From a virus (lineage: Duplodnaviria; Caudoviricetes): DNA of 35,777 nucleotides. The notes beneath the pieces are model-generated. The model saw only the letters and a list, made by a program, of their open reading frames with translations, ran no database searches and was not told the origin of the DNA. A program made the position numbers and the translations under genes. This document shows, piece by piece, positions 10,149 to 30,435 of the stretch (position 1 is its first letter; the number at the start of each line of letters is the position of its first letter). The stretch lies in the IMG/VR virus record IMGVR_UViG_3300042366_000723, positions 1 through 35,777 of that record; one strand, written 5' to 3'.

Positions 10149-12071
10149 ATGCCCATCATTCCACAATATCGAGCAGAGGGACCGGCCCAGCCGGTGGCTC
10201 CGGCCATGGAGTCCGAGCAGGGGCTGCGGGTCGATGCGTCCACCGCCCTTCGCGGCATCGCTTCTCTGGCGGACGCCCTGGGCGATGTCAAGCAGCCCGT
10301 CGCCAACGTCTCGCCGGAACTCGGCCAGGCAAGCGCCAGGGGGCTCCAGAACCTGGGGCAGGGCGTCGGCAACCTCGGGGAGGCCATGTTCGACGTGCGC
10401 CAGCGCATTGCCGAGGCGTGGAACTTCCGCAAGGTTTCGGAGGCGCAGGAAGCCATGGACCGCGAGGTGGGCGAATTCGAGGCTTGGAAGCTGACTGAAC
10501 CCAACCCGACCCGGTGGGAGTCGGAGTGGAAGGGCCGGATGGAGCGCATCCAGAACGACCTGCTTTCCGGCGAGGATCTCTCCCCGGCGGCCAAGGACCA
10601 GATCTCGGCGCGGGTCATCACCTTCGGCAACCGGCACGGTGTCCGCGTGGGCCTCGACGCCGCGAAGCAGGTCGTGGAGTTGGCCAACCAATCGAACGGC
10701 GCGGAGATCATGCGGGCGGTTCGCGCGGGGGATCTGGCGACGGTAGAGAACCTCACCCAGTATGCCGTCGATCAAGGCTGGCAGGGCGCGGATTGGGCGG
10801 AGCGGACCCGGTGGGAGGCAAGCGAGAAGATCCGCGAGGACGCGCTCAACGGGGCGAAGCTGCGGAGCGAGACCTTCGCGCTGCGCGGATTGTGGCAGGA
10901 AGGCCGGGACGAGATCGCCAACGCGCCGTGGGAAACCGAGGACGACCGCCAGAATGCTGTCGCCAACTTCGACAGCAAGGTCGTGTCCCGGCAGATTCAG
11001 TTCGAGGTCATCGAGCGTGCGCGTGACGGCGCGGACCCGGACGACCTTATCGCGGAGCTGACCGCCAAGGACGCCGAGGGCAACTACGTCAACCACCCGG
11101 AACTTTCACCCATGATGCGGGCCGAGACTTTGGAGCCGCTATACAAGGCCAAGAACGACGAATACGCGTCCCAGGTCGAGGCCGCCGAGATCTACATTGG
11201 CAACGGTGACATCAAGACCGAGGGGGATCTCGACGCGTTCTTCGACGGCAAGCCCATCGACCCGCTCAACCGGTCGATCCTGACGGCCAAGCTCAAGGAG
11301 GAATTCGTCAAGACCGAGGCCGGCATCGTTGACCTCATGGCCAAGGCCGCTGCCTACGACCCGGCCAAGGATGTCGGAGGAGTTGCCGCCGGGGTTCTGG
11401 AGTTGGCTATCGGTCAGACCATGGGCGACGACCCGAGGGCGGAGGGCGCTCGAACCATCCTCGAAAAGCGCAAGAACGGGGAGCCGCTGACGTTTGGGGA
11501 GGACATCCTTGCGACGAGGAAGAAGGCCATGGAGGAAATGGCCCACGCCGGGGCTGATTATCGCGTCGAGGCCGGGAAGCTGGAACAGCGAGAGGTTTCG
11601 GGAAAGACGCTCTTCATCGACTTCAGTCAGCAGCCCGACGAGGGTGACGCGGCGCGATACGAGGAAACGGTCGATCCTTGGTGGCGGGGGCCGAGGCAGA
11701 AAGTCGGTCGCATCGTCGAGGTCAGCCAGGCGGATCGCGAAGATCTGCTTGAAGGCAAGGCCAAGTTTGTCACCGACCAACGGAAGAAGCGGGCCGTCGA
11801 TGAGGATGTGGCGAAGACTCTCCTTGAAATGCAGCGCCAGGCCGACACCGGCGAGATGACGCGGGAGAACGCGCCGGAGGTCGAGCGCAAGATCACCGAG
11901 CCCGCCCGAGCGAAGGCCGCCGAAAAGATGGTCGATGAGAAACTCAGCGGCGACGACCCTCTCGGAATGTCACCCGCAGGGGAGAGCGGCCAAATTGACC
12001 CTGCCCTGTTTCCAGAAAAAGACCTCGAGTGGCTCAACAGCTACACCATCCCGGCGCAAGCCACCATGTGA
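10149..12071 (+). CDS. Internal virion (ejection) protein, gp15-like
   Basis: 640 aa, helical and acidic, MPIIPQY start, GLQNLGQGVGNLG segment, position between gp14-like and giant protein genes. Confidence 0.65.
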   Translation: MPIIPQYRAEGPAQPVAPAMESEQGLRVDASTALRGIASLADALGDVKQPVANVSPELGQASARGLQNLGQGVGNLGEAMFDVRQRIAEAWNFRKVSEAQEAMDREVGEFEAWKLTEPNPTRWESEWKGRMERIQNDLLSGEDLSPAAKDQISARVITFGNRHGVRVGLDAAKQVVELANQSNGAEIMRAVRAGDLATVENLTQYAVDQGWQGADWAERTRWEASEKIREDALNGAKLRSETFALRGLWQEGRDEIANAPWETEDDRQNAVANFDSKVVSRQIQFEVIERARDGADPDDLIAELTAKDAEGNYVNHPELSPMMRAETLEPLYKAKNDEYASQVEAAEIYIGNGDIKTEGDLDAFFDGKPIDPLNRSILTAKLKEEFVKTEAGIVDLMAKAAAYDPAKDVGGVAAGVLELAIGQTMGDDPRAEGARTILEKRKNGEPLTFGEDILATRKKAMEEMAHAGADYRVEAGKLEQREVSGKTLFIDFSQQPDEGDAARYEETVDPWWRGPRQKVGRIVEVSQADREDLLEGKAKFVTDQRKKRAVDEDVAKTLLEMQRQADTGEMTRENAPEVERKITEPARAKAAEKMVDEKLSGDDPLGMSPAGESGQIDPALFPEKDLEWLNSYTIPAQATM

Positions 12072-15000
12072 TGCCCATCCCAGAACAAGACGCCCTTCGT
12101 GCCATTGCCGTCGCAAAGGCCAACCCGAACGACCCTGCCGTCATCGCCAAGGCGCAGGCGCTCACCCGTGCCTATCAGGCCCAGCAGGAGGCCGCCGGTC
12201 TCTCCATGTTCCCCGAGCAGGAGCGCCGCCGAGACGAGCAGGCATCGACCCTCCGGTCGTTCTTCACCGAGCCCAATCACGGCCTTGATGAGGACACGCT
12301 TGTTTCCCTCAATGAAAACTTCCGCGAGTCCCCGGACGAGAAGTTCAAGCTCTTCAACCGGAAGTGGTTTGAGGCTGCCGGAGTCCCCAGGGAGCGCGTC
12401 GAGCGCGAGGCCGATGAGCTGATGAAGATCTACTCGGAAAGGGAGTGGGGAACTCCCTCCACGACCCACAAGCATTTCTTCGACCGCATCGCGAGGGATT
12501 ACCAAACCCGCGAGGAGGTCGCCAACGCCGCCAAGGAAACCTCGCTCCAGAACCTGGGCGTCCTCCGCTCCGAGCTGGCCTTCAAGGAGCGGTTCCGCGA
12601 GAACTCCTCCTATGTGGGGCGGGAGCAGAAGTGGGACAAGGAGTTCCAATCCCTCAAGGACCGGTTCGACCAAAAGCTGGCTCCGCATCGCTCGACGGTC
12701 AAGCTGCTGTCGGCGGCCCTGATGACCAAGGAGGGCGTCGATGTGGAAGATCCCACGACGATGGACGAAGCCCTGGCCCAGCGGCGCGAGATCGACAATG
12801 CTGCGAGCTATCGGGAGCTGGCCGAGATGGTGATGATGGTCCCCGCCGAAGACCGCAAGCTCGTCATCGCTGCGGCGGTGGCGGCCAGCGCCAACGACGA
12901 GGCCGGGAGGAAGAGCGTCATGGAGGGGCTGGTCGAGAAGTTCGACCGGGGGCTGCGCGGCGGAATGGATTCTGTCGTCTCCATCGGTGAGCGCAGTCAG
13001 GCCATCGCCGTTGAGCGGGCCATTGCCGAGGGTGTCGAGGTTCCCGCCGAAAAGGCCGGAACGCCGGAGGAATACATGGAAGCCGTGCTTCAGCGCGTAG
13101 CCGGTGGTGACGCTTATGAGGTCCGGGCTGGAGTCATGAAGGCGGTGGCCGGGGCGGATTTCGACAAGCCCTCGGACGAGGTCAAGGACCAGGCTTTGGC
13201 CATGATCCGAGAAAACAAGGACGCCATCGACCTTCGGGACGAGCTTCGGCTCGCGGCAGAAAACGACATTGATCCGGTGACTTCGGAGTTCCTTCCCGTG
13301 CGCGGGCTTTACGCCGCCGCCGAGTCCGTCCCCTACATGATGACCTCCATGGCTCGCGGCGGATGGGCGATCAACGCCATGGCCTTGGCCGGGGATTCCT
13401 ACCGGTCCCTTCGGGCGGCGAATCCGACCATGACCGCAGAGCAGGCGCAGACGCTCTCCATGCTTTCCGGTCCCTTCCAGGCATTCATCGAGAAGGGCCA
13501 GACCACACTGGCACTGGGCCAGTTCAAGGCCGTCAACCGCTTCTTCAACCAGATCACCCGGACCAAGGGCGCGGTCGCCTCGCGATTCCTCACCCGCACC
13601 GCCGCCACAGCCGGTCTGGAAATGGTTCAAGAGAACGTGCAGGATTTGACGCCCTTCGTGCTGCAAGGGCTCCTTTCGGCCCTCGACGAGGATATGCCGG
13701 AAGTTCCCTGGGGGCCGGTCTATGGCGACCTGCTCAAGCAACAGCCCGAACTGTTCTTCGCGGTGCTGCCACTGGCGGTGATCGGCGGCGGGGCCGGGAC
13801 GTATTCGGATTTCAAGGGCGGGGCGGAACTTCTCACCTCCTACGACCTCCTCCGAGCCACCGGCCTGTCCGAGGCGGCGGCTTCCGAGGTGCGGGCGCTG
13901 GCAAGCCAGGGCAACGTCGAGGGGGCGCAGACTCTCCTGCGGCAGGAGTTCAAGACCCTCGGCCAGGACCAGAAGTCGGTGCAGGAGGCGCGGGCCGAGG
14001 CGATCCCCAGAATGATCGCGGAGCGCGAGGCCATGCAGCAGGCGCTGAACGAGGCCGGGGAGCTGGACATCCTCCCGGCCATCCTTCGCGAGGGCGAGAA
14101 ATACACGCTCCGCTACTCCGGCGGGGAGGCGGTCCAATACGATTCCCACGCGGAGGCGTTCGCACGCTTCGAGGCGGTGGCCTCCAGTGCGGTCGCCGCC
14201 CTCCATGAGGACATGATCACCGCCGCCCGCATGACCACCTCGCAGATCGAGCGGGGCCGGGAGGTGAAGTTCATCGTTTCTCCCCTGCGTCCAACGACCG
14301 AGGACATGGAGGCGCAAGGGGTGGCGACCGGCGAGGACATGGCCCAGCGCATGGAGATCTCCGAGGCCGACAAGGCGCTCACGCCCAAGACCGAGGAGCG
14401 AAAGGCCAAGGCCATGGCGGGCATGGTCGCCAATTCGCCGGAGGCGAGGACGGCGGTCAACTACATTCTCGGATCCGCCACTACCTCTGAGGCCGCGCCG
14501 GATTCCTTCGGGGACCGGGTCGTTCGCAACACGGTGCGGCTCTACCAAGGCGCGACACCCTTCACCCTCTTTGAGGAAACCGCCGAGGGAGACGCGAAGT
14601 TCATGATCCGCGAGCTGGGCCTCCGGCGGTGGATGATCGGGGCGCTCCGGCAATGGGAGGCGACGAGCGGGGACACCCTGTTCCGCGCCAGCATCAAGGA
14701 AGAATCGCAGATCAAGGACCAGGACATCGTCGAAGCCTATAGCAAGATGGTGCAGGGCTACCTGGCGGGCCGGTCGAAGTCTGGCGATCAGGGCAGGGTG
14801 TTCTCCAGCCGGTTCCGAAAAAGCATTGCCGACGCCCTCCGGGGCGACTTCGGGGCGGTGCTGACCGGGTATGCCAGCCTCTTCGAGGCCGTCTATCGCC
14901 GCGCCGCCATGATCGAGAAGGCCCGCCGGGACAAGACGTTCGACGGGGATCTGGAGACGTTCCTTGCGAAGTCCACGGGGATGAGCGAACAGCGGCTCTT

Positions 15001-18000
15001 TGAGCGGGATGTTCAGCGGGAAGGCAGCGCAATCGCCCAGGATTTGAGCGGGAATCCCGATTTTTCGAGCGGGGAGGGAACGGAGACGACGTTCTCGGTG
15101 ATCGAGCCGGGACAGGGTTTCAAGCAAACCGCCATGCCTGACGGGATGGTCCTCCAAGGCCCAGCGACGTTCTCGGTGCTGGCGCACCATGGGACACCGC
15201 ACAAGGTGGACCGGTTCCGCCTCGACAAGATCGGGACCGGGGAGGGGGCGCAGGCGTATGGGTGGGGATTGTATTTTGCGGAGGCAATCAAGGTGGCGAT
15301 AGGATACAGGGATTCTCTTTCTGACCCAGGCAACGTGCCGCTGCATTTTGACGGCAGACCATTGAACACTCCTTGGACAAGTGAAATCCGCGAACGGTGG
15401 TCTGATTACTACAAGAATCTCAGCGAGTCTGACGCTGATGCGATGGATGAACTTCTCAGCAATCTTTCGCAGGCCGATGATATTTCATCTGTATCAGATG
15501 CGCTGGGATTCGTATCAGGTCGAGCGAAGTCTCTTTACACGAAGATCGTCAAACTAAAGTTGGAAAAGCCAGAAATTGGTCCGGGCAACCTCTACACCGT
15601 CGAACTGCTCCCCGACGAAGGCGACTTCCTCGACTGGGACAAGCCGCTGAGTGAGCAGAGCGAGAAGGTGAAAGCCGCGATTCAAAAGGTCATTGGTCCC
15701 GACGAGGAAATGACCGAGTACATGAAACGTCGCGGAGGAACTGGCGGGTATCTTTACGGTGCCCTCGCGACCCAGTGGAACGCCGAGATCGACAAAGGGA
15801 AGTCGGCATCAGCAGAATTACTCCGGGTCGGCATCCCCGGCATCCGCTACCTCGACGGCAACAGCAGGGCGGACGGGACGGGAACCTACAACTATGTCAT
15901 CTTTGACGAGAGTCTCGTCCGCATCCTGGAGGAGAACGGGCAACCCGTCGAGCAGCAAGGCGGGGAGACGACGTTCTCGGTGAGGGTTTCCGCCACCGGG
16001 GTCAAACCCCCCAAGGGCGTGAAAGCAAAAGTCTCTGATGCGCTTCCAATCTGGTCGATCCCGAACACGAAAGGGAAGTCTCTCGGGAAGAAACTCACGA
16101 CCAAGAAGAATCGCGAAAAAGTTTTTGCTTCAATCGACAATGCCCTCACCTGGCTCAGGGGAGACCCCTCCCGAATCGCGACTCCATCTGGATGGGTGAA
16201 CTACTTGAAAAAGTCCGGCGTTTATGGCGATGTGATGATGCCTCCGACTGGAATCGGGCAACTGTTTGAAGACCCGAAGGGATATGTCGAAAAGCTCAAT
16301 GGAGCCTATCATGGCGATCTCACAATTCCGGGGACGCAGCAGTCGGCGCAGGAGGGTCTCAACTCCACAAAGACGATGCGAGACCTCATCGGAGAAGGGC
16401 AAGCTCCGCATGTCTGGGTGACGGCATTGCATCACCTGTGGGGAATCCTTTCCCGGATGCTTCCTCCGATTCATCAGGAGGGGATGTGGATCCGGTTGAT
16501 CAGCAGCAAGCCTGTCCTCGCCGCCATCCAGTCATCCATCGACGGCAATTTCAAGATGACCGTCAAGCAGTGGAAGAAGGTCGTTCAAGGGGCGCGATTG
16601 GAAACTCCCGGCGCAGGCAAGATTGGAAACGCCGCGACCGCAAACGCGAATTCGTTTTACCTGATGCTCTCTAGGCTAAACGGGAGATGGGAAGATCTCG
16701 CCAATGTCTACGCGGCACCATCGGCGCAGGAAATGGGCCGGAGGTTCTGGTCGCTAGACGCGGGATCCCTCGGAATCAAAAACAAGGTGCAGCGGTTCAT
16801 TGGCCTGACCTACGGAATTCCCGGCGTCATCATGGATCGGTGGAAGTTTGTCGAGTTCTGGCTTCCGACCGCTATTCGCGGGACCGGCGCAGAGTCGCCA
16901 ATGGATTACTTTGCCTACAGCAACGGAGTTCCTGAGGATCCGCTCGGAATCTACGGAGTCTATGGCGGCATTGATTCCGGCAACGAGGCTTTGAGCCTCG
17001 CGATGTATGAAGGCATGGAACTTGCCCTCCAGTCTGCCATCGACGCATCTCCAGAACTTACTGCCGCCCTTGGATCTCACGCGAATCCCGGAGGCCTGCA
17101 CTGGGCAGGGTGGAATGCCATCAAGAACGAGGCGGTAGGGCACAGTTCCCTCGACTTCACCGCCGACTTGATTCGGAACTTCGGGATGGACATTACCGCC
17201 GATTCCGTCTACTCTCAAGCCCGGAACGGCGTCTACTACACCGAAGGCGCGGACACCTCAAAGACCAACGCAAAACTCATTCTCGACCATGGCAGCATCA
17301 AGCTCGAAAGGACCAGCATTTCCGGGGGACTTCAGCAACGACGCGCCGGAATTCTCGGACGAGGAACTGGAGTTGGAAATGGAAAAAGCGGAGAGGGAAC
17401 TGCTCGGGGAAGTCAACGACGAGGAGGAGTAGACACCACCTTTTCCCTCCTCCCCGACGCGAGCAACCTCGACAGCGAGTTCGCCCGGATGTTCTCGCCG
17501 TTCCAACGGTCGCCGGAACTTCGCGCCAAGCTGGGCATGGAGATGCGCCGCCGGGTCGCGGATCAGGTCACCAAGCTCCGGCCCATTCTTCGCGCCAACC
17601 GGACCAAGGCCAGCATCGAGGCCGAGCGCAAGCGGCGGCAGGACGAGATCTTCACCGAAAAGCTCGACACCCTCAGTGCCGGGGAGATCCAGGCGCTCGC
17701 CAACGAGAACCTCCTCGAAGACAATTCCCTGACTCCGATCCTCGCCGAGCTGCTTCGCCAGAAGACCTACAAGACCAAAAGCGGGAAGCGGGTCCGCTAC
17801 TGGACCGGCTCCCTCATGTCCAAGAGCGAGGCCAACCGCCGAGGCTACGACACGACCGGCGGCGAATGGGACGCAGTCCCCGAGGGGCTCCCGCCCTACG
17901 TCTACGGGGGCTCCATCACGCCCGACGAGGCCGCGACCATGTTCGACTTCGAGACTCCCGAGGCGTTCTTCGACGCCCTCGCCAGCGAGATCCAATCCCG

Positions 18001-20707
18001 AGGCGACCGCAAGCAGGAGGTCGAGGACGCCAAGCGCCGCGTCCGCGAGCTGGAAAAGGAGGCCCGGAAGGAAGCCCGCGCCTGGGCGGACGAGGCCATG
18101 AAGGAGCGCAAGACCGTGGGCGGCGACCGGGCCGTCCTCCTCGGATTCCTCCGCACCCTCGACGCCATCACCCGTGCGCTCCCCGCCGAGGTGCGCGGGA
18201 AGATCGGCGGGTCCGTGGCGCTGGCCAAGTTGGTGACTCCGGCGGCCATGCTCGACGAGATCGAGAGCCGGGTCGAGCGCATCGACGTGGAGCTGGAGCG
18301 GTATCTGAAGAAGGAGGCCGACGACCGGCGAAAGGCGCTCTTTGAGACCGCCAAACCCAAGCGCGAGGCCGGGAAGAAACCGAAAGGCAAGGCGGGCGCT
18401 GACATCCACGACCTCTTCGACCGGCTCAAGGAGGCGCTCCTGTGGGACGGCGACCAGGCGGAGGCGTGGGCAACCATGCTCGAAGACCGGATCGGGAAGG
18501 GTGAACTCAGCGCCGAGGCCGAGGCTCACGCCAAGATCGAGGCCAACCTAGTCCGGCTCTTCTCGGATTGGAAGAACGCGGACGCAGCCCGGCGAACCGC
18601 CGCAGTCGATGCGGGGGAGGAAGTCTGGCGTGTTGGCTACCTGGCCGAGAAGGAGCGCATCGCCCAAGAGCGCGAACGGCGGGCGGAGGTCCGTGCGGAA
18701 ATCATCGCCGGGACCGGAAAACTCGGGAGCCGCCCCGAGCGGGTCGTGAAGGCCCAGCAGGATGCCGGTTTGTCCGGCCAGTGGAAGGAGTGGTTCCTCT
18801 CGCTCTTCAACTTCGAGCAGGTCGCCGGGTTCGCCATGGGAGCCGAATCGAAGTGGACCCTTTGGTTCTCCGACGCACAACGCGAGGCCGAGGCCAAGAA
18901 GCTCGACGAAGTGCAGGCCGTCCTCGACGGGCTTGACGAACTGTTCCGCGAACTCGGGGGCTCCCGTCTCGGCGGGGAGAAGCTCCAGTGGAAGCTGTCA
19001 CAACCCTCCTTCGAGACCAAGGCGGGCGGCAAGATGTCTGAACTCCAAGGCATCACCGCCCTGCTCATGTGGCGGCAGGAGGACGGGAAGCGGCACATGC
19101 GGGGCAAGCGTGATGAAAACGGGAAGATCGTTTCGGCCTGGTCCTACGACGAAACCTTCATCGCTGAGATCGAAAAGAACCTCTCGACCGAGGCGCTGGC
19201 GGTGATGGACTACCTCACCGATCAATACGCGGGGGAATACGAGACCCTCAACCCCATCTTCCGCGAACTCAACGGGATCAATCTCCCGCGAAACGACAAA
19301 TACTCCCCGCTCACCGTCAAGCCGCAGCAGGCTCCCGGCGGGCAGACGACCGACCCTGTGACCGGCTCGACCATGAGCAACGGAAGCATGACGCCGGGCA
19401 GCCTCCGCACGCGGGCGCAGGTCGTGGCCGAGCCCGACTTCCGCAATGCCGTCGAGGTCTTTGTCGGCCACAAGAAGCAGCTCGCCCATTGGAAAGCCTA
19501 CGCCGTGTTCTCCCGTGACGCGCAGGCGATCCTCGGCAACCGGGAGGTTGGCAACGCCATCGAGGCGGCAAGCGGACAGGAGGCGGCCAAGGTGTTGCGT
19601 TCGTGGCTCGACTTGTTTGCCCAGGGTGGCGTTCGCGATGCGGGCTCCCACCTGGCCCTGACGAAGGCGCTGGGAGCGGCCATGGGTCGCGCCTCTGCGG
19701 TGCAGCTTGTCGGTCGCCTCGGCACGCTCGCAATTCAGACGACGCAGCTCGGGGCGGCGGCGGCCAAGATGCCTGTCCGCGATTACATCGTCCGCCTCTC
19801 CAAGCTCCTCACCGGGAACCTCGGGTGGGGCGAGGCTCTCAACTCTCCCTACATTCAACGCCGTCTGGCCCTGATGCCCGCTTCGGTGCAGGTGGCAATG
19901 GAAGGTCTCCGGGCCGGGAAGCCCAACATGATCAAGCACGCCGCGCAACGCGTTGGCCAACTCCTTTCCGGGACTGACGCCCTCTTCACCGCCGGAACCT
20001 ATGCCATGGTGTTCGACTACCAGTTGACCAAGGCCACCAGGGCCGGGGTCGATCCCGTGACCGCCGCCGAGATCGCCCGCAACGAGGCCGAGCGAATCGT
20101 GGATGAAATCGCGCAGCCCACGCGGCAGGGGACGCGGAGCCTGTTCGAGGCCACCGCGACCAATCCACTGGGCCGGGTCGCCTGGGCGTTCGCGTCCGAG
20201 GCTCGGAAGAACATGGCCCTCGTCGCGTACACGGGCGGCAAGCGGCCCTCCGGCGACTTGGCCAGGGCGCTCCTCTACGTCATCGTCTTCAACGGCGTCC
20301 TTTCGGCGCTGATCCGAACGGCGTGGCGCGATCTTCGCGACGACGAGGAGGGCGAGGACGAGTGGGGTATGCGCCGCATCCTTCTCAGCGTGGCGTCGGA
20401 ACCGCTCTACGGGTTCCCCGGCTTCGGGGAAATCGCGCAGGACGCAATCTTCGCCGCCGCCGGGGAATGGAAACCCAGCGGCTCCATCCTCGACGCGCCC
20501 GTCAAGGCTCCTCCAGCCATCGTGCGAGCGCCGGAAAACTTTGGCATGGTGCTGGAAGGGGACTTTGAACAGCCGCTCCGCGACCTCGAAACCATTCTCA
20601 TGGCGGGCGGACTGTTCAACGACACCGTCGCCGGTCTCGCCTCCTTCTCTCACGTCCTCCGCGATGCGGAATCCCTCATCCGAAACTTCATTCCCAACAC
20701 CCCATGA
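12071..20707 (+). CDS. Giant internal virion/polyvalent protein (~2880 aa) with ART-like and HhH-GPD-like central domains
   Basis: Start probably ATG 12071 (TGATG coupling) rather than GTG 12029; occupies the gp16 position; central HGT..GEGAQAYGWGLYF..GIPGIRYLD..NYVIFD domain and GIKNKV..VIMDRW domain. Confidence 0.85.
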   Translation: MPIPEQDALRAIAVAKANPNDPAVIAKAQALTRAYQAQQEAAGLSMFPEQERRRDEQASTLRSFFTEPNHGLDEDTLVSLNENFRESPDEKFKLFNRKWFEAAGVPRERVEREADELMKIYSEREWGTPSTTHKHFFDRIARDYQTREEVANAAKETSLQNLGVLRSELAFKERFRENSSYVGREQKWDKEFQSLKDRFDQKLAPHRSTVKLLSAALMTKEGVDVEDPTTMDEALAQRREIDNAASYRELAEMVMMVPAEDRKLVIAAAVAASANDEAGRKSVMEGLVEKFDRGLRGGMDSVVSIGERSQAIAVERAIAEGVEVPAEKAGTPEEYMEAVLQRVAGGDAYEVRAGVMKAVAGADFDKPSDEVKDQALAMIRENKDAIDLRDELRLAAENDIDPVTSEFLPVRGLYAAAESVPYMMTSMARGGWAINAMALAGDSYRSLRAANPTMTAEQAQTLSMLSGPFQAFIEKGQTTLALGQFKAVNRFFNQITRTKGAVASRFLTRTAATAGLEMVQENVQDLTPFVLQGLLSALDEDMPEVPWGPVYGDLLKQQPELFFAVLPLAVIGGGAGTYSDFKGGAELLTSYDLLRATGLSEAAASEVRALASQGNVEGAQTLLRQEFKTLGQDQKSVQEARAEAIPRMIAEREAMQQALNEAGELDILPAILREGEKYTLRYSGGEAVQYDSHAEAFARFEAVASSAVAALHEDMITAARMTTSQIERGREVKFIVSPLRPTTEDMEAQGVATGEDMAQRMEISEADKALTPKTEERKAKAMAGMVANSPEARTAVNYILGSATTSEAAPDSFGDRVVRNTVRLYQGATPFTLFEETAEGDAKFMIRELGLRRWMIGALRQWEATSGDTLFRASIKEESQIKDQDIVEAYSKMVQGYLAGRSKSGDQGRVFSSRFRKSIADALRGDFGAVLTGYASLFEAVYRRAAMIEKARRDKTFDGDLETFLAKSTGMSEQRLFERDVQREGSAIAQDLSGNPDFSSGEGTETTFSVIEPGQGFKQTAMPDGMVLQGPATFSVLAHHGTPHKVDRFRLDKIGTGEGAQAYGWGLYFAEAIKVAIGYRDSLSDPGNVPLHFDGRPLNTPWTSEIRERWSDYYKNLSESDADAMDELLSNLSQADDISSVSDALGFVSGRAKSLYTKIVKLKLEKPEIGPGNLYTVELLPDEGDFLDWDKPLSEQSEKVKAAIQKVIGPDEEMTEYMKRRGGTGGYLYGALATQWNAEIDKGKSASAELLRVGIPGIRYLDGNSRADGTGTYNYVIFDESLVRILEENGQPVEQQGGETTFSVRVSATGVKPPKGVKAKVSDALPIWSIPNTKGKSLGKKLTTKKNREKVFASIDNALTWLRGDPSRIATPSGWVNYLKKSGVYGDVMMPPTGIGQLFEDPKGYVEKLNGAYHGDLTIPGTQQSAQEGLNSTKTMRDLIGEGQAPHVWVTALHHLWGILSRMLPPIHQEGMWIRLISSKPVLAAIQSSIDGNFKMTVKQWKKVVQGARLETPGAGKIGNAATANANSFYLMLSRLNGRWEDLANVYAAPSAQEMGRRFWSLDAGSLGIKNKVQRFIGLTYGIPGVIMDRWKFVEFWLPTAIRGTGAESPMDYFAYSNGVPEDPLGIYGVYGGIDSGNEALSLAMYEGMELALQSAIDASPELTAALGSHANPGGLHWAGWNAIKNEAVGHSSLDFTADLIRNFGMDITADSVYSQARNGVYYTEGADTSKTNAKLILDHGSIKLERTSISGGLQQRRAGILGRGTGVGNGKSGEGTARGSQRRGGVDTTFSLLPDASNLDSEFARMFSPFQRSPELRAKLGMEMRRRVADQVTKLRPILRANRTKASIEAERKRRQDEIFTEKLDTLSAGEIQALANENLLEDNSLTPILAELLRQKTYKTKSGKRVRYWTGSLMSKSEANRRGYDTTGGEWDAVPEGLPPYVYGGSITPDEAATMFDFETPEAFFDALASEIQSRGDRKQEVEDAKRRVRELEKEARKEARAWADEAMKERKTVGGDRAVLLGFLRTLDAITRALPAEVRGKIGGSVALAKLVTPAAMLDEIESRVERIDVELERYLKKEADDRRKALFETAKPKREAGKKPKGKAGADIHDLFDRLKEALLWDGDQAEAWATMLEDRIGKGELSAEAEAHAKIEANLVRLFSDWKNADAARRTAAVDAGEEVWRVGYLAEKERIAQERERRAEVRAEIIAGTGKLGSRPERVVKAQQDAGLSGQWKEWFLSLFNFEQVAGFAMGAESKWTLWFSDAQREAEAKKLDEVQAVLDGLDELFRELGGSRLGGEKLQWKLSQPSFETKAGGKMSELQGITALLMWRQEDGKRHMRGKRDENGKIVSAWSYDETFIAEIEKNLSTEALAVMDYLTDQYAGEYETLNPIFRELNGINLPRNDKYSPLTVKPQQAPGGQTTDPVTGSTMSNGSMTPGSLRTRAQVVAEPDFRNAVEVFVGHKKQLAHWKAYAVFSRDAQAILGNREVGNAIEAASGQEAAKVLRSWLDLFAQGGVRDAGSHLALTKALGAAMGRASAVQLVGRLGTLAIQTTQLGAAAAKMPVRDYIVRLSKLLTGNLGWGEALNSPYIQRRLALMPASVQVAMEGLRAGKPNMIKHAAQRVGQLLSGTDALFTAGTYAMVFDYQLTKATRAGVDPVTAAEIARNEAERIVDEIAQPTRQGTRSLFEATATNPLGRVAWAFASEARKNMALVAYTGGKRPSGDLARALLYVIVFNGVLSALIRTAWRDLRDDEEGEDEWGMRRILLSVASEPLYGFPGFGEIAQDAIFAAAGEWKPSGSILDAPVKAPPAIVRAPENFGMVLEGDFEQPLRDLETILMAGGLFNDTVAGLASFSHVLRDAESLIRNFIPNTP
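15082..17449 (+). repeat. Dispersed in-frame TFS(V/L) boxes
   Basis: GGAGACGACGTTCTCGGTGA exact at 15082-15101 and 15964-15983; 14-nt core CGACGTTCTCGGTG at 15165-15178; diverged DTTFSL at 17432-17449. Confidence 0.85.
17289..17432 (+). CDS. Candidate overprinted 47-aa acidic protein (+1 frame inside the giant gene)
   Basis: ATG..TAG; MAASSSKGPAFPGDFSNDAPEFSDEELELEMEKAERELLGEVNDEEE; 16 D/E against 3 K/R; main frame here is forced into GGA/CGA codons. Confidence 0.55.
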   Translation: MAASSSKGPAFPGDFSNDAPEFSDEELELEMEKAERELLGEVNDEEE

Positions 20708-22014: not shown

Positions 22015-22283
22015 GAAGGACGGCGCCCCTGCCCGACGACATCTGCATGTGCATCCCCAGCCTCGGGCGTGTCTGCGTCTGGTGCGAGCGGAGGGCGGCC
22101 AACCCGCCGGAGACGGTTGAGGAGGTTGACGGGCTGACCGAAGAGGGTCCGCTAGCAGGGCTCGGCTACCGGGGAGCGGACCAGGACGGCTACGACGGGG
22201 AGGAGTGGGTCACGCCCGAGGAGCATAACGCCGGGAACCTCGTCGAGGCGATCAGGGTGCTGTTTGAGGCCGAGGAGATATAG
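22011..22283 (+). CDS. Hypothetical acidic protein with CxC..CxxC motif (90 aa)
   Basis: ATG 22011 coupled to previous stop; CMC...CVWC; converges on and overlaps the integrase 3' end. Confidence 0.6.
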   Translation: MRRTAPLPDDICMCIPSLGRVCVWCERRAANPPETVEEVDGLTEEGPLAGLGYRGADQDGYDGEEWVTPEEHNAGNLVEAIRVLFEAEEI

Positions 22284-23436
22284 CGGGAGCGATCCTGCAA
22301 AACCTCCCCGCCTCATCCCGACTGACGAGCTTGGCAACGTAGCTCCGGTAAAGTTGGGCCGCGTTGGTGTGCCGGGACCAGTTGGCGACTTTCGCCGCGT
22401 CACCATGCAGGGACATGAGCATGGTGCAGAAGGTGTGGCGCATCGCGTTCTGGGGCCATTCCGGGATCCCGAGCTTGGGGAAGTCTTTTTGACGCATCGC
22501 CTCGACTGTGACATTGCCGGGGACGCGGATCTTTCCGGTTCCGGGGTACGCTTGAAGCCATTGCCAGAGGCTCGCGGGTAGGTCATGCAGCGCCCAATCG
22601 TCGCCCGTTTTCACAACCCGCTTTCCCTCGGACCAGCCCGGCAGGGTGATTGTCTTGGCGTCGAGGTCGATCCACTCCCATCGGAGTCTGCCCACCTCCG
22701 CCCGCCGGATCCCGGCGAAGAGCTGGAGCGCGTGCCAGGGGATGTACTTCGGGCGCTCCATTTCGAGGTAGAGCATCATGGCCGCGCACTGGTCCACCGA
22801 CAAGACACCCTTGGCCTTCGGTCTCGCGGCGGGAAGGTCTGCCTCATGGATCGCATCGCCCGGCGAGACGGTGATCAGGTTCCTTCGCTTGCACCAGTTG
22901 AAGAAAGCCCGAAGGCTCCCGGCGTAGTTCCGCACCGTCCTCGGCTCGAAGCGGAGTTCGCGGAGCCAATCGAGGAGGTCATTGCCTGAGATGGCGGCCA
23001 CCTCGCGGGAGGCGAAGCAGGAAGCGAAGGTCTCAACGTGCTGAGTGAGGGCGGCCATGTGGCGAACCGACAGCCCCTTCCCTTTCTGAGCCTCCAGAAA
23101 CGCGCTGGCGGCCTCGGGAAGGGTGGCGCTGTCCTGACCCTCCGGGTGGTGCGCTCGCCAAAATGCGGCCACCTGACGAAGGTCTTCGCCGCCGGCGATC
23201 CGCTTCGCCTCCCGGAACTCCGCGTGATCCTCGGGGGAGTAGTCGCCGGACCCGGAGCCGAATCGTTTCACCCGGTGGCAGTGCTTCGACCAGGCAGTGA
23301 GGGCGTCCTTCTCAGTTTCGTAGAAGGTCCGTTTCCGCTTGCCGTTTGAGTGGGTGGTCAACTGCCACCGGTCCCGGTCGGGGAGGTAAACGATGGGGAC
23401 GGTTCCGGCTCTCGTTCGTTGTGGATTTGCGGGCAT
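22252..23436 (-). CDS. int: Tyrosine integrase
   Basis: LFAGIRRAEV (R), VKTG (K), NAMRHTF (HxxR variant), WSRHTN (H), YRSY (Y); N-terminal arm-binding-like region; adjacent attP. Confidence 0.93.
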   Translation of the reverse strand: MPANPQRTRAGTVPIVYLPDRDRWQLTTHSNGKRKRTFYETEKDALTAWSKHCHRVKRFGSGSGDYSPEDHAEFREAKRIAGGEDLRQVAAFWRAHHPEGQDSATLPEAASAFLEAQKGKGLSVRHMAALTQHVETFASCFASREVAAISGNDLLDWLRELRFEPRTVRNYAGSLRAFFNWCKRRNLITVSPGDAIHEADLPAARPKAKGVLSVDQCAAMMLYLEMERPKYIPWHALQLFAGIRRAEVGRLRWEWIDLDAKTITLPGWSEGKRVVKTGDDWALHDLPASLWQWLQAYPGTGKIRVPGNVTVEAMRQKDFPKLGIPEWPQNAMRHTFCTMLMSLHGDAAKVANWSRHTNAAQLYRSYVAKLVSRDEAGRFCRIAPAISPRPQTAP

Positions 23437-25907: not shown

Positions 25908-25954
25908 CGGTGTCGCAAACAACCGGGGCGCGACGGAAACGCGCACAGAACAAA

Positions 25955-26791
25955 ATGAACGAACTTACCATCCAAAACCAAGGCGGTTTCGCCATCATGC
26001 GCCAAACCGCAGAGCTGTTCGCCAATGCGGACATTGTCCCGAAGGCATTCCAAGGGAACCTCGGCAACTGCTTCATCGCCATCCAACTGGCCGACCGAAT
26101 GAAGGCCGACCCGTTTCTCGTCATGCAGAACGTGGACATCATCCACGGCAAGCCCGGCTTCTCCTCGAAGTTCCTCATCGGGTGCTTCAATTCGTGCGGT
26201 CGATTCTCGGCCATCCGCTACGAACACGACGACCAGGACGGTGGTCGAACCCGTGCGTGTGCCACCGAGTTGGCCACCGGTCGCGAGATCCTCGGGCCGT
26301 GGGTTTCGATGAACATGGCCAAGGCCGAGGGCTGGCTCTCCAAGAACGGGTCGAAGTGGCAGACGATGCCGGAGCTGATGCGCTCCTACCGGGCCGCTGC
26401 ATTCATGATCCGCGTCACGGCTCCCGAAATCTCGCTGGGCCTGCCGACGACCGAGGAGGTCATCGACACGGGTGGGATGGGTCGGGAGGTCCGCGACATC
26501 ACGCCGAAGACGCCGTTTGCGCGAGCCAAGGCGGAGCCCGTTCCTGTGGTCGCCTCGGTCGAGGTGGTCGAGGAGAAAGCTCCCGATCCGCTCGAAGTCA
26601 TCAAGGCCAAGCTGACCAAGTCCGGCCTCAAGGTGAGCGAGGCGCTCGGTGCGCTCGCTACACTTGGAATCGGCGACGGCAAGACGCCGTTCAGCAAGAT
26701 GGACCCGGCCACGCTTGAGAAGGTGGCCAGCGATTGGTCCACGGTCGAGGAGGTCGCGGGGCAACTCAGGGCGCAGGAGGTGATCGCATGA
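25955..26791 (+). CDS. RecT-like single-strand annealing protein
   Basis: IVPKAFQGN.GNC.IA.....R...DP..VMQN..II.GKP and GW..KNGSKWQTMPELM..YRAA motifs; next to an exonuclease gene; start probably ATG 25955. Confidence 0.75.
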   Translation: MNELTIQNQGGFAIMRQTAELFANADIVPKAFQGNLGNCFIAIQLADRMKADPFLVMQNVDIIHGKPGFSSKFLIGCFNSCGRFSAIRYEHDDQDGGRTRACATELATGREILGPWVSMNMAKAEGWLSKNGSKWQTMPELMRSYRAAAFMIRVTAPEISLGLPTTEEVIDTGGMGREVRDITPKTPFARAKAEPVPVVASVEVVEEKAPDPLEVIKAKLTKSGLKVSEALGALATLGIGDGKTPFSKMDPATLEKVASDWSTVEEVAGQLRAQEVIA

Positions 26792-27591
26792 TCGAGGGCA
26801 TCAACCTCAACGTCCCCGAGGCCGCTTACCACGCGTTCCCTGCCGTCTCGAAGTCCACCCTGTGGAAGTTCGCCAAGAACCCGCACAAGTGGCTCCTGAC
26901 GAAAGACGAGCCCATGGCTCCGACCGCCAGCATGAACTGGGGAAGCTTGGTCGATTGCTGCCTGTTGCAGCCGCAGGAACTTTCCCAATGCTTCGCGGTG
27001 TCCTCCTTTCCCGACTTTCGGACCAAGGAAGCGCAGTCGTGGCGGGATTCGCAGACCGTCCCCATCGTCACCTTGGCCCAGGTGGCTGAGGCCAAGAAGG
27101 CGGCGGAACTGATCCGCTCCCATCACTTTGCTGGAGCGATCCTCGACGGCGCCGCGGCGCAGGTTTCGGCCTTGGTCGAGGGCATCGAGGACAAGACCGG
27201 CGAGCGGTTCAGTGGCAAGTGCCGGATCGACATTGTGCCGGACGCCGCCGGGGCTTTCGGGGATTGGCTGGTCGATCTCAAGACCACGCAGTCGATCTCG
27301 AAGCTCCCGGCGACCATCGCGGAATTCGGGTATCATGCCCAGGCGGCGTGGTATCTCGACATGTTCAACGCCGCGAGCGGCGAGAACCGGACCCGGTGGG
27401 GTTTCATCTTCCAGGAGTCGGAATCCCCCTACGAAATTGCCGTGGTCGAGCTGGATGCCGACAGCATTGCGAAGGGCCGGGAGTGGTATCTGACCGCTCT
27501 GGAGAAGTGGTGCCACAGCCACAAGACCGGGAATTTCCCCAATCCGTTCGATGACGAGATCCGCGTCATCAGCATCCCGAAGTGGGCATGA
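26788..27591 (+). CDS. RecE-like PD-(D/E)xK exonuclease (DUF3799-like)
   Basis: YHA..AVSKS, KCRIDIV, VDLKTT, YHAQAAWY, FIFQE...PY motifs. Confidence 0.85.
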   Translation: MIEGINLNVPEAAYHAFPAVSKSTLWKFAKNPHKWLLTKDEPMAPTASMNWGSLVDCCLLQPQELSQCFAVSSFPDFRTKEAQSWRDSQTVPIVTLAQVAEAKKAAELIRSHHFAGAILDGAAAQVSALVEGIEDKTGERFSGKCRIDIVPDAAGAFGDWLVDLKTTQSISKLPATIAEFGYHAQAAWYLDMFNAASGENRTRWGFIFQESESPYEIAVVELDADSIAKGREWYLTALEKWCHSHKTGNFPNPFDDEIRVISIPKWA

Positions 27592-29096: not shown

Positions 29097-29915
29097 ATGA
29101 AAGACCCGATTTACAAGATCATTGATTGGGACCGGCATTTCGAGAACAACCGTTCAAGGACGGTTGAAAACTTGAGGTGGGTCTGCGTCCCCAACAAGCA
29201 CGACGGGGAGGGCTTCTCCACGATCATGGAACAGGAAAATGCCGCCGAATTGTTTGCGGCCTGGGTGCTGATTTTGCAGGTGGCATCCAAGTGTCAGGTA
29301 CGTGGCAGCCTGGTGCGGGATGATGGCACTCCCCTGACAGCCAGATCGCTGGCATCGAAGACTCGCGGCAACGTGGCGTGGTTCACCGAGGCTCTTAACT
29401 TCTTCACAACCAAGGTGAAGTGGATGGAGTGTCAGGCAGCTGACAGCCAAGTGTCACCCGCCTGCCAGGCAACTGACAGCCAAGTGACGAAGAAGGGAAG
29501 GGAAGAGAATGGAAAGGAAGGGAGTGAAGGCGCACCCGCCCCCGATCCCCTTCCCGAACTCGACTCCGAAACCCTCGCCCGCCAAGGCAAGTCTCTTGAA
29601 TCCATTGCCGCCCGCCTCACCCTCCCTGCCGCGAACTTCATCGAGCACGGCGCGACCGTCGGCCTTTCCCCGGATCAGGTCCGGCAATGGGCGGATTCTC
29701 GCGTTTCGAACGGATGGAGCACGGGGAAGGGTAAGCCCCTCACGCCGATGACGTGGCCCGCCGACCTGCAAAACTTCGCTTCCGCCTTCAACCAAATTTC
29801 ACAAAAGCAAAATCATGGAAAAAATCATTCGAATGGTTCCCGAAACGATCAAACGGCTAACGCAGGTCGAGCCGCCGCCTTCGCTGACATTGGAAAACTT
29901 CGCCCCGGGGTATGA
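29097..29915 (+). CDS. Replication initiator (lambda O-like organisation)
   Basis: N-terminal I.DW..HFE..WV..PNK domain, central iteron-encoded linker, C-terminal NGW..G.GKP...W motif, followed by a DnaC-like gene. Confidence 0.7.
   Translation: MKDPIYKIIDWDRHFENNRSRTVENLRWVCVPNKHDGEGFSTIMEQENAAELFAAWVLILQVASKCQVRGSLVRDDGTPLTARSLASKTRGNVAWFTEALNFFTTKVKWMECQAADSQVSPACQATDSQVTKKGREENGKEGSEGAPAPDPLPELDSETLARQGKSLESIAARLTLPAANFIEHGATVGLSPDQVRQWADSRVSNGWSTGKGKPLTPMTWPADLQNFASAFNQISQKQNHGKNHSNGSRNDQTANAGRAAAFADIGKLRPGV
29428..29530 (+). repeat. Putative replication origin (iterons plus purine tract)
   Basis: TGNCA every 11 bp five times; CAGGCA(G/A)CTGACAGCCAAGTG at 29433 and 29466; then a G/A-rich tract. 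Confidence 0.65.
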
Positions 29916-30435
29916 TGCGAGCTTTCATCCCGAATGCCGCACCGCCGCCGCCGAGGTTATCCGCTTCATCGAATCGACCATGAGCGGCGGAAAGCAATGG
30001 TGTGCCCTGGTTGGCGTCTCTGGTGTCGGAAAGACGATGCTGGCCCGCGCCGCCAATCAATACCTTTCCGAACACGGAAAGAACGCTCGGTTTCTCCGGT
30101 GGATCACGATTGTCGATTACATGCGAAAGGGCGACTACGGAGTCATTGACCACGTATGCGAAGCCAAGGTCGCGTTCATCGACGATATTGGAGCCGGTTA
30201 CGAAACCGCGCTGAGCAAGGCGAAGATTTTGGAGATTGCGGAACGCCGGACGGGAAAGCCTACGTTCTGGACTTCCAATCTCACGGCGCAACAAATCGCG
30301 GATCAAATTGACGTTCGTGTCGCCTCGCGCATGGTGCGGGATGGCAACCGAGTGTTTCAGTTTTCCGAGTGCCCGGATTGGTCGATTTTGAATTATGGGA
30401 ACGACCAAGCGCACGGAGCGCGAGAAGCAAAATGA
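29815..30435 (+). CDS. DnaC/IstB-like AAA+ ATPase (helicase loader)
   Basis: Walker A GVSGVGKT, Walker B AFIDDIG, TSNL and R.ASRM motifs. Confidence 0.88.
   Translation: MEKIIRMVPETIKRLTQVEPPPSLTLENFAPGYDASFHPECRTAAAEVIRFIESTMSGGKQWCALVGVSGVGKTMLARAANQYLSEHGKNARFLRWITIVDYMRKGDYGVIDHVCEAKVAFIDDIGAGYETALSKAKILEIAERRTGKPTFWTSNLTAQQIADQIDVRVASRMVRDGNRVFQFSECPDWSILNYGNDQAHGAREAK

Follow-up and report, generated by a model that had tools for sequence, protein, structure and literature searches.

The window, that is, the whole 35,777-nucleotide stretch of viral DNA analysed here, contains a podophage-like genome with tail, terminase and head-tail connector genes (Pfam and PHROGs), of which the tail and connector genes are T7-like. 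It is present in 20 listed lake or freshwater sequencing runs from 18 studies, six of which are possible sources, with no RNA dataset listed. The GenBank phage collection yielded no match, and thus no cultured relative was found; an exact DNA pattern designed for close relatives also returned 0 hits in viral contigs. Two of the four genome-collection matches lie in assemblies labelled Verrucomicrobia, a weak hint of the host only. The integrase gene suggests that the phage is likely temperate, and RecT-like, exonuclease VIII-like and DnaC-like genes lie further downstream (Table 1). The 15 presumed gene starts in the window have A/C-rich, weakly structured leaders, and many of the genes are joined by ATGA overlaps.

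Among the tail genes, within the podophage morphogenesis block, lies a giant gene that opens with GTG at 12029, the ATG at 12071 being the likelier start. From this gene context, a virion or ejection role can be proposed for the protein. Its modules are delimited by T(T)FS boxes at residues 1020, 1047, 1314 and 1803, and the GC3 of its core parts is mostly 0.7-0.95. Searches of the entire 2892-residue protein against Pfam and PHROGs gave no MuF match. The first of two cassettes matches ART-PolyVal weakly, below the curated cut-off, and the second encodes a domain with a predicted DNA-glycosylase fold. Between 15269 and 15510, within the first cassette, the codon adaptation of the main frame falls to 0.43-0.48 and no acidic +1 open reading frame (ORF) is found; this segment may have been inserted from a foreign source or may contain a hidden gene that is not acidic. 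Within 16600-17700, neither a sigma-70-like promoter nor a terminator was detected.

Table 1. Positions of the features discussed in the text, in window coordinates
Feature	Position	Strand	Remarks
Giant gene, putative virion/ejection-type polyvalent protein	12029..20707	+	2892 codons
14-bp near-repeat, copy A	15068..15081	+	2319 bp before copy B, in frame
First cassette, weak ART-PolyVal match	15161..15964	+	E 3e-4, 21.9 bits (curated cut-off 31.2)
Domain with predicted HhH-GPD glycosylase fold, about 403 aa	16100..17308	+	aa 1358-1760; model pLDDT 93.9
Invariant Lys (domain K229), candidate catalytic/lyase lysine	16784..16786	+	43/43; start of the helix after the hairpin
Invariant Asp (domain D246), candidate catalytic aspartate	16835..16837	+	43/43; after the Gly/Pro loop
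Leader of the hidden gene, A/C-rich, unstructured, without Shine-Dalgarno word	17259..17288	+	within the domain-coding sequence
Hidden +1-frame gene, predicted cognate inhibitor (immunity peptide)	17289..17432	+	47 aa
Conserved core of the hidden gene, predicted interface	17310..17405	+	residues 8-39
14-bp near-repeat, copy B	17387..17400	+	within the hidden gene
DTTFSL module box	17432..17449	+	
Integrase	22252..23436	-	phrog_1, E 3e-31
RecT-like and exonuclease VIII-like genes	25910-27591	+	
DnaC-like loader	29815-30435		

An acidic +1 reading frame behind the domain

Immediately behind the domain, an ORF in the +1 frame relative to the giant ORF runs from an ATG at 17289 to a TAG at 17430-17432. 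The encoded peptide contains 16 Asp/Glu and three Lys/Arg residues (net charge about -13), and its conserved core consists of an FPGDFS-x-D-x-PEF motif followed by a helix. Neither the peptide nor the upstream domain matched a Pfam or PHROG family. In the sequence-only reading, the main frame had been described as a G/R/S linker with unusual codons and the +1 frame as an acidic 47-residue protein with ordinary ones, and the codon statistics bear this out: across 17289-17432, GC3 and codon adaptation are 0.35 and 0.52 in the main frame, compared with 0.68 and 0.60 in the +1 frame. The stop also lands where that reading had placed it, the last base of the TAG being the first base of the Asp codon in the DTTFSL box.

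The acidity of the hidden ORF is far above chance. Other 47-codon +1 windows in the giant gene contain a mean of 1.1 acidic codons and a maximum of five, and when the linker was recoded at random with synonymous codons 200,000 times, no coding reached 16 acidic codons (mean 3.8, maximum 13). Openness by itself was ruled out as evidence, because 89% of the synonymous codings are stop-free in the +1 frame. We also scanned the long frames of the window for further acid-rich hidden ORFs, and none was gene-like.

The A/C-rich leader, previously noted as similar to those of other genes in the genome, is 77% A+C and 10% G, with a predicted folding energy of -3.3 kcal/mol. On all three measures it is more extreme than the leader of any of the other 121 ATGs that the giant gene contains; it resembles the leaders of the 15 presumed true starts (means of 62% A+C, 19% G and -5.3 kcal/mol). 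A Shine-Dalgarno-like word is absent at 17289 and at all 15 presumed true starts.

Nested and free-standing homologues

Domain searches retrieved 98 loci, which, after duplicates were collapsed, correspond to 57 distinct anchored sequences, including the window; L059, where the contig ends, and L093, which lacks an anchor, were left out of the locus counts. The domain is internal in 18 of these sequences (hereafter nested) and C-terminal in 37 (hereafter terminal), and two are uninformative. At the protein level, the domain is C-terminal in 130 of 171 anchored relatives and internal in 41, most of which have a G/R-rich linker following the domain. If the hidden ORF were a gene, homologues would be expected to keep it open at the linker position, and all 17 distinct full-length nested loci do so, each with at least one ATG ahead of the core. 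In most of the nested homologues, the +1 ORF ends just before the next FS box.

In the terminal loci, a separate small, mostly acidic ORF is located at the stop codon of the domain in 36 of 37 cases. These free-standing ORFs start within -14 to +17 nt of the stop, with an ATGA overlap in 17 (counted by script), and many of the peptides share an FP[AG]DF[ST] or PE[FY][ST]D.EL motif. Several of them (L012, L079-83, L086 and L094) are too divergent for homology to be recognized by eye. The homologous peptides are less acidic than that of the window, with 7-13 Asp/Glu in 38-55 residues, and some are net basic. The one terminal locus with no small acidic gene after the domain's stop is L092, where a different ORF, presumably transposase-like, follows the domain.

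An HMM built from 35 free-standing peptides alone (L012 was left out) matched the window ORF with an E-value of 9.8e-8, the sole significant match among 716 six-frame segments of the window, the next best having an E-value of 1.8. None of 2000 shuffles reached the real score. Of the 17 nested homologues, the same HMM recovered 16 (E<0.005) and missed the L015 peptide (E 1.0). These profile matches demonstrate, at the level of sequence comparison, that the hidden gene is homologous to the free-standing genes coupled to the stop of the domain. Wherever it was found in the loci examined, which were themselves collected via the domain, the small gene adjoins the domain.

To this homology can be added a frame-specific conservation analysis of the kind proposed with the sequence-only reading. 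It covered 25 codons in 10 of the 18 nested sequences, with the peptide motif as anchor; these 10 come from related lineages. Among variants that would be silent in the +1 frame, 23 of 41 were seen, compared with 15 of 61 among those silent in the main frame (p=0.002); the latter were no commoner than variants non-silent in both frames (33 of 123). Differences among the nested sequences peak at +1 third positions (0.36), and main-frame third positions differ at 0.21 in the linker versus 0.56 in the domain. Furthermore, the +1 frame over the last 20 codons of the domain is stop-free in 11 of 11 nested versus 9 of 23 terminal lineages (p=6e-4). By this substitution pattern, selection acts on the hidden gene in its own frame. 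The hidden ORF is confirmed as real and conserved.

The layout extends to two distant subfamilies, which encode different +1 peptides at the same place after the domain. In subfamily C (L120-L199), an ATG-started +1 ORF was identified in 79 of the 80 loci fetched from 364 found (71 by pattern and eight by eye), and the remaining locus has a broken domain frame. The core of these peptides is of the AL.GL.KV.TP type, and the peptide profile of family A does not match them (best E 0.07). Nested versions in subfamily C frequently continue into a second helical segment of acidic character, which ends with MGF or a similar sequence. In subfamily B, a third +1 peptide type with a MEELVRQVSGLM-like core follows the domain in L099-L109; candidate ORFs are present in most distinct loci but not in all, L108, L110 and L113 having none and L111 only an unrelated ORF.

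In the phylogenetic tree, from which P0147 was left out, nested forms are placed inside free-standing ones, requiring one or two changes, and terminal forms are basal provided that the root, which rests on a long-branch outgroup, is correct; the support for the single-origin branch is only 67/88. From this placement, the small gene probably came first, and the linker is probably the derived reading, produced as a shadow of that gene by read-through. The earlier proposal that a new gene had been overprinted on the linker is the reverse of this and is probably not what happened.

The upstream domain and its predicted complex with the peptide

The structural model of the domain has the HhH-GPD fold. 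In a wide fold search (48,161 chains), the best match was Thermotoga maritima Ogg (3n0u; rmsd 3.5, 204 aligned) with a Z-score of 12.7, close to the value of 13 at which the tool advises caution for helical models, and ranks 1-23 were all glycosylases or queuine-salvage DUF2419 proteins. Ogg was also the top Foldseek match (E 0.094), with no PDB match reaching an E-value of 0.001. The fold search gave DUF2419 a Z-score of 7.5 and 8z2m, a base-modifying transferase from a phage, one of 4.3. A PDB sequence search with the domain profile returned 0 matches, and the leads from the ESM Atlas, all below 0.9 and pointing to viral clusters of which some carry the label DUF7178, were set aside. The invariant K229 and D246 may be catalytic; in the secondary structure of the model they occupy the positions expected of the HhH lysine and the GPD aspartate, and they may be equivalent to the catalytic residues of Ogg.

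We modelled the domain together with the hidden peptide, a check suggested when the ORF was first noticed. The complex reached an ipSAE of 0.83, whereas the best of three controls scored 0.12 and the swapped-domain control 0.00; in calibration, 116 of 157 solved pairs came up to the ipSAE mark, as did 2 of 215 mismatched ones, counts that are roughly applicable here, our own alignments having been used. The runs agree in at least 72% of contacts, and the pLDDT of the partner is at least 66. The predicted interface comprises peptide residues 8-39, including D14, D18, E21 and D24, and 11 of the 15 invariant residues of the domain, K229 and D246 included, are among 51 interface residues, although structure predictors tend to dock partners onto conserved surfaces. 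Sequence identity in the domain correlates with that in the peptide (rho 0.39; 0 of 2000 permutations), a relationship that shared descent alone can give. The model supports binding of the peptide at the active site of the domain.

The idea of a Ugi-like DNA mimic, raised at the outset, stands in part. The peptide is acidic and its predicted interface covers the pocket; however, that interface is formed by the hydrophobic/acidic FPxDFS motif and an amphipathic helix, and the very acidic tail is neither conserved nor part of the confident interface. As modelled, the peptide resembles a plug in the active site more closely than a mimic of the Ugi type, and it has no family match in Pfam or PHROGs to Ugi or any other named mimic.

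Function and expression of the hidden gene

We consider it likely, with a probability of about 0.7, that the hidden ORF is a conserved nested gene and its product the probable cognate inhibitor of the domain, with a predicted binding site on the face that bears the active site. The pairing of an effector with a nested inhibitor, as originally conceived from the DNA letters, is thus supported by the free-standing homologues, selection in the +1 frame, the HhH-glycosylase fold and the complex model. In the corresponding scenario, the giant protein would be packaged and injected into the next cell, where the domain could attack DNA bases, either those of the host or those of a rival phage's modified DNA. 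The peptide would be translated from the same late mRNA by internal ribosome entry at the unstructured ATG lacking a Shine-Dalgarno word. Since the hidden gene lies on the mRNA of the effector, the inhibitor would be made wherever the effector is made, and could guard both the producing cell and the phage's own DNA. The arrangement might have arisen from an ancestral C-terminal toxin-plus-immunity pair in which the toxin lost its stop codon, allowing read-through into further modules; the -1 shadow of the acidic gene, with GAN codons read as GGA or CGA, would then have become the G/R-rich linker. Such a cassette would keep its antidote and leave the giant ORF unbroken.

A broader generalization, to which we give even odds, is that giant virion proteins are chains of toxin-immunity cassettes, with the antidote of each internal effector encoded in the +1 frame of the next, G/R-rich linker. 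Under this generalization, the effector in the window would be an HhH glycosylase/lyase that the virion delivers and that damages the DNA of the host or of a rival phage. The hidden peptides, which fall into at least three dissimilar families, would be natural inhibitors of HhH glycosylases. To our knowledge, natural protein inhibitors of HhH glycosylases have not been described.

The most serious competitor to the inhibitor reading, though clearly less probable, is that the peptide binds the domain as a chaperone, a packaging tag or a regulator of a non-toxic enzyme, for example one protecting, repairing or modifying phage DNA on entry. The sequence results fit any partner gene equally, and the HhH fold also spans repair enzymes, queuine-salvage DUF2419 and the base-modifying transferase 8z2m. 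However, the predicted interface lies over the invariant pocket and thus suits blocking, and the overall pattern is that of toxin-immunity systems: a C-terminal domain with a coupled small gene, partner families that differ by subfamily, and a cassette apparently lost in some contigs.

It is improbable that programmed frameshifting, in place of internal initiation, appends the peptide to a shortened giant protein. Frameshifting would accommodate the variable start codons of the nested loci: the ATG at 17289, which corresponds to D-H-G in the main frame, is lineage-specific and absent from the fetched loci (the two closest proteins keep D-H-G), the +1 start position varies from E-16 to E+15, and many homologues have theirs some 21 codons farther upstream, at a position that reads ACG in the window. 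The N-terminal extensions also resemble low-complexity shadow sequence. Nevertheless, no slippery run or re-pairing site of any kind was found in the window, nor a conserved one in 14 nested sequences. An ATG is present in each nested locus, and the free-standing homologues possess their own starts. The context of the nested ATGs is mostly unusually open: of 13 nested loci analysed, 12 have a +1 ATG that ranks in the 90th percentile or higher for low structure, whereas the upstream ATG of L014 is only at the 73rd. Internal initiation with a variable N-terminal extension fits these observations best.

Slightly less probable still is a fossil, that is, an old immunity gene captured as a linker whose expression has been lost in the window phage. 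Free-standing ancestry is likely and the linker must stay open in any case, as this explanation would have it, but third-position variation tracks the +1 frame among loci about 65% identical in the domain, and the leader of the window ATG is the best of 122. In addition, a diverged contig in run X20 retains GAC CAT GG in register (one loose end only). A general acidic DNA mimic directed against host enzymes (Ocr- or Ugi-like) and unrelated to the neighbouring domain would suit the charge of the window peptide, but is very improbable given the much less acidic, in part net basic homologues, the position of the gene next to the domain in the loci examined, and a complex model that passes with the cognate domain and fails with the swapped one.

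Polymorphic toxin-immunity pairs of the MuF type were reportedly described by Jamet in 2017. In a more recent account, MuF pairs of temperate phages comprise a virion-associated carrier, a variable C-terminal enzymatic domain and a cognate immunity protein (PMC12226406). On that description, the 37 terminal loci share the layout of carrier, C-terminal domain and immunity-type gene; in contrast, there is no MuF domain here, a giant, putatively ejection-type protein serves as the carrier, the predicted fold of the effector is that of an HhH glycosylase and, in 18 sequences, the domain is internal with the immunity-type gene out of frame inside the carrier ORF. Polyvalent proteins, as outlined in the main text of Iyer et al. 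2017 (PMC5512222), are giant multi-module phage virion proteins with shuffled cassettes. The weak ART-PolyVal match in the window, and the ART-PolyVal, RadC and other Pfam domains of its homologues, are in line with this class. That main text contains no mention of 'glycosylase' or 'overlap', and its passages on 'immunity' describe no cognate immunity genes of polyvalent proteins.

HhH-superfamily glycosylases also serve as weapons in bacteria: Dag1 and Dag2 are antiviral, and the bifunctional Dag1 destroys DNA that contains modified guanines (10.1101/2025.10.29.685425). The domain described here is likened to them by predicted fold; unlike these bacterial defence proteins, it is phage-borne, fused within a virion protein and accompanied by a predicted inhibitor. 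Acidic toxin-immunity DNA mimics such as RehhI (10.64898/2026.09.22.753552) share with Ugi and the hidden peptide a small acidic partner, here one predicted to lie over the DNA-binding/catalytic pocket. Whereas Ugi targets uracil-DNA glycosylase, the modelled motif-plus-helix peptide, of variable charge among homologues, would target its own neighbour.

Embedded genes are known from lambda, where Rz1 lies within Rz, and from comS within srfA. A synthetic counterpart is the alternate-frame insertion OAFI, in which an inner gene is placed in a flexible region of the outer protein (10.1101/2024.11.07.622342). All of these have, like the locus described here, a small gene wholly within a larger gene on the same strand. 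What distinguishes the present case is that the inner gene encodes a predicted inhibitor of one of the outer protein's domains, and that a single family comprises both nested and free-standing forms. In the literature covered, with most subscription papers and supplements outside it, we found neither nested immunity genes nor a glycosylase domain in polyvalent or ejection proteins. MuF pairs, polyvalent proteins, acidic immunity proteins, embedded genes and engineered alternate-frame insertions are known separately, and their combination was not found in the literature searched.

Gene finders would miss such a built-in, likely antidote, which would explain the apparent absence of immunity genes from these polyvalent phage proteins; the linkers examined would be G/R-rich, with odd codons, because they are shadows of hidden genes. 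With a ready effector-inhibitor pair, the domain could be cloned and its substrate found. A gene that exists in both free-standing and nested states offers a rare traceable route to gene overlap. If the inhibitor reading is true, the locus would provide an example of a DNA glycosylase that phages deliver as a weapon, together with a peptide inhibitor directed at an enzyme superfamily to which OGG1, MutY and EndoIII belong.

Additionally, contig ends in runs X7, X8 and X14, from two studies, join copy A of the 14-bp near-repeat to copy B. This is a hint of an allele without both cassettes and without the start and core of the small gene, and only a hint because the joining pieces are shorter than 31 letters per side. 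The RecT/RecE-like genes of the phage could potentially drive such cassette exchange. Several lake-run contigs also join or leave the window within the first cassette, with loose ends at 15584 and 15632-15674, and one contig joint within 15584-15860 skips 171 bases, which suggests a second exchange point inside the ART-PolyVal-like module.
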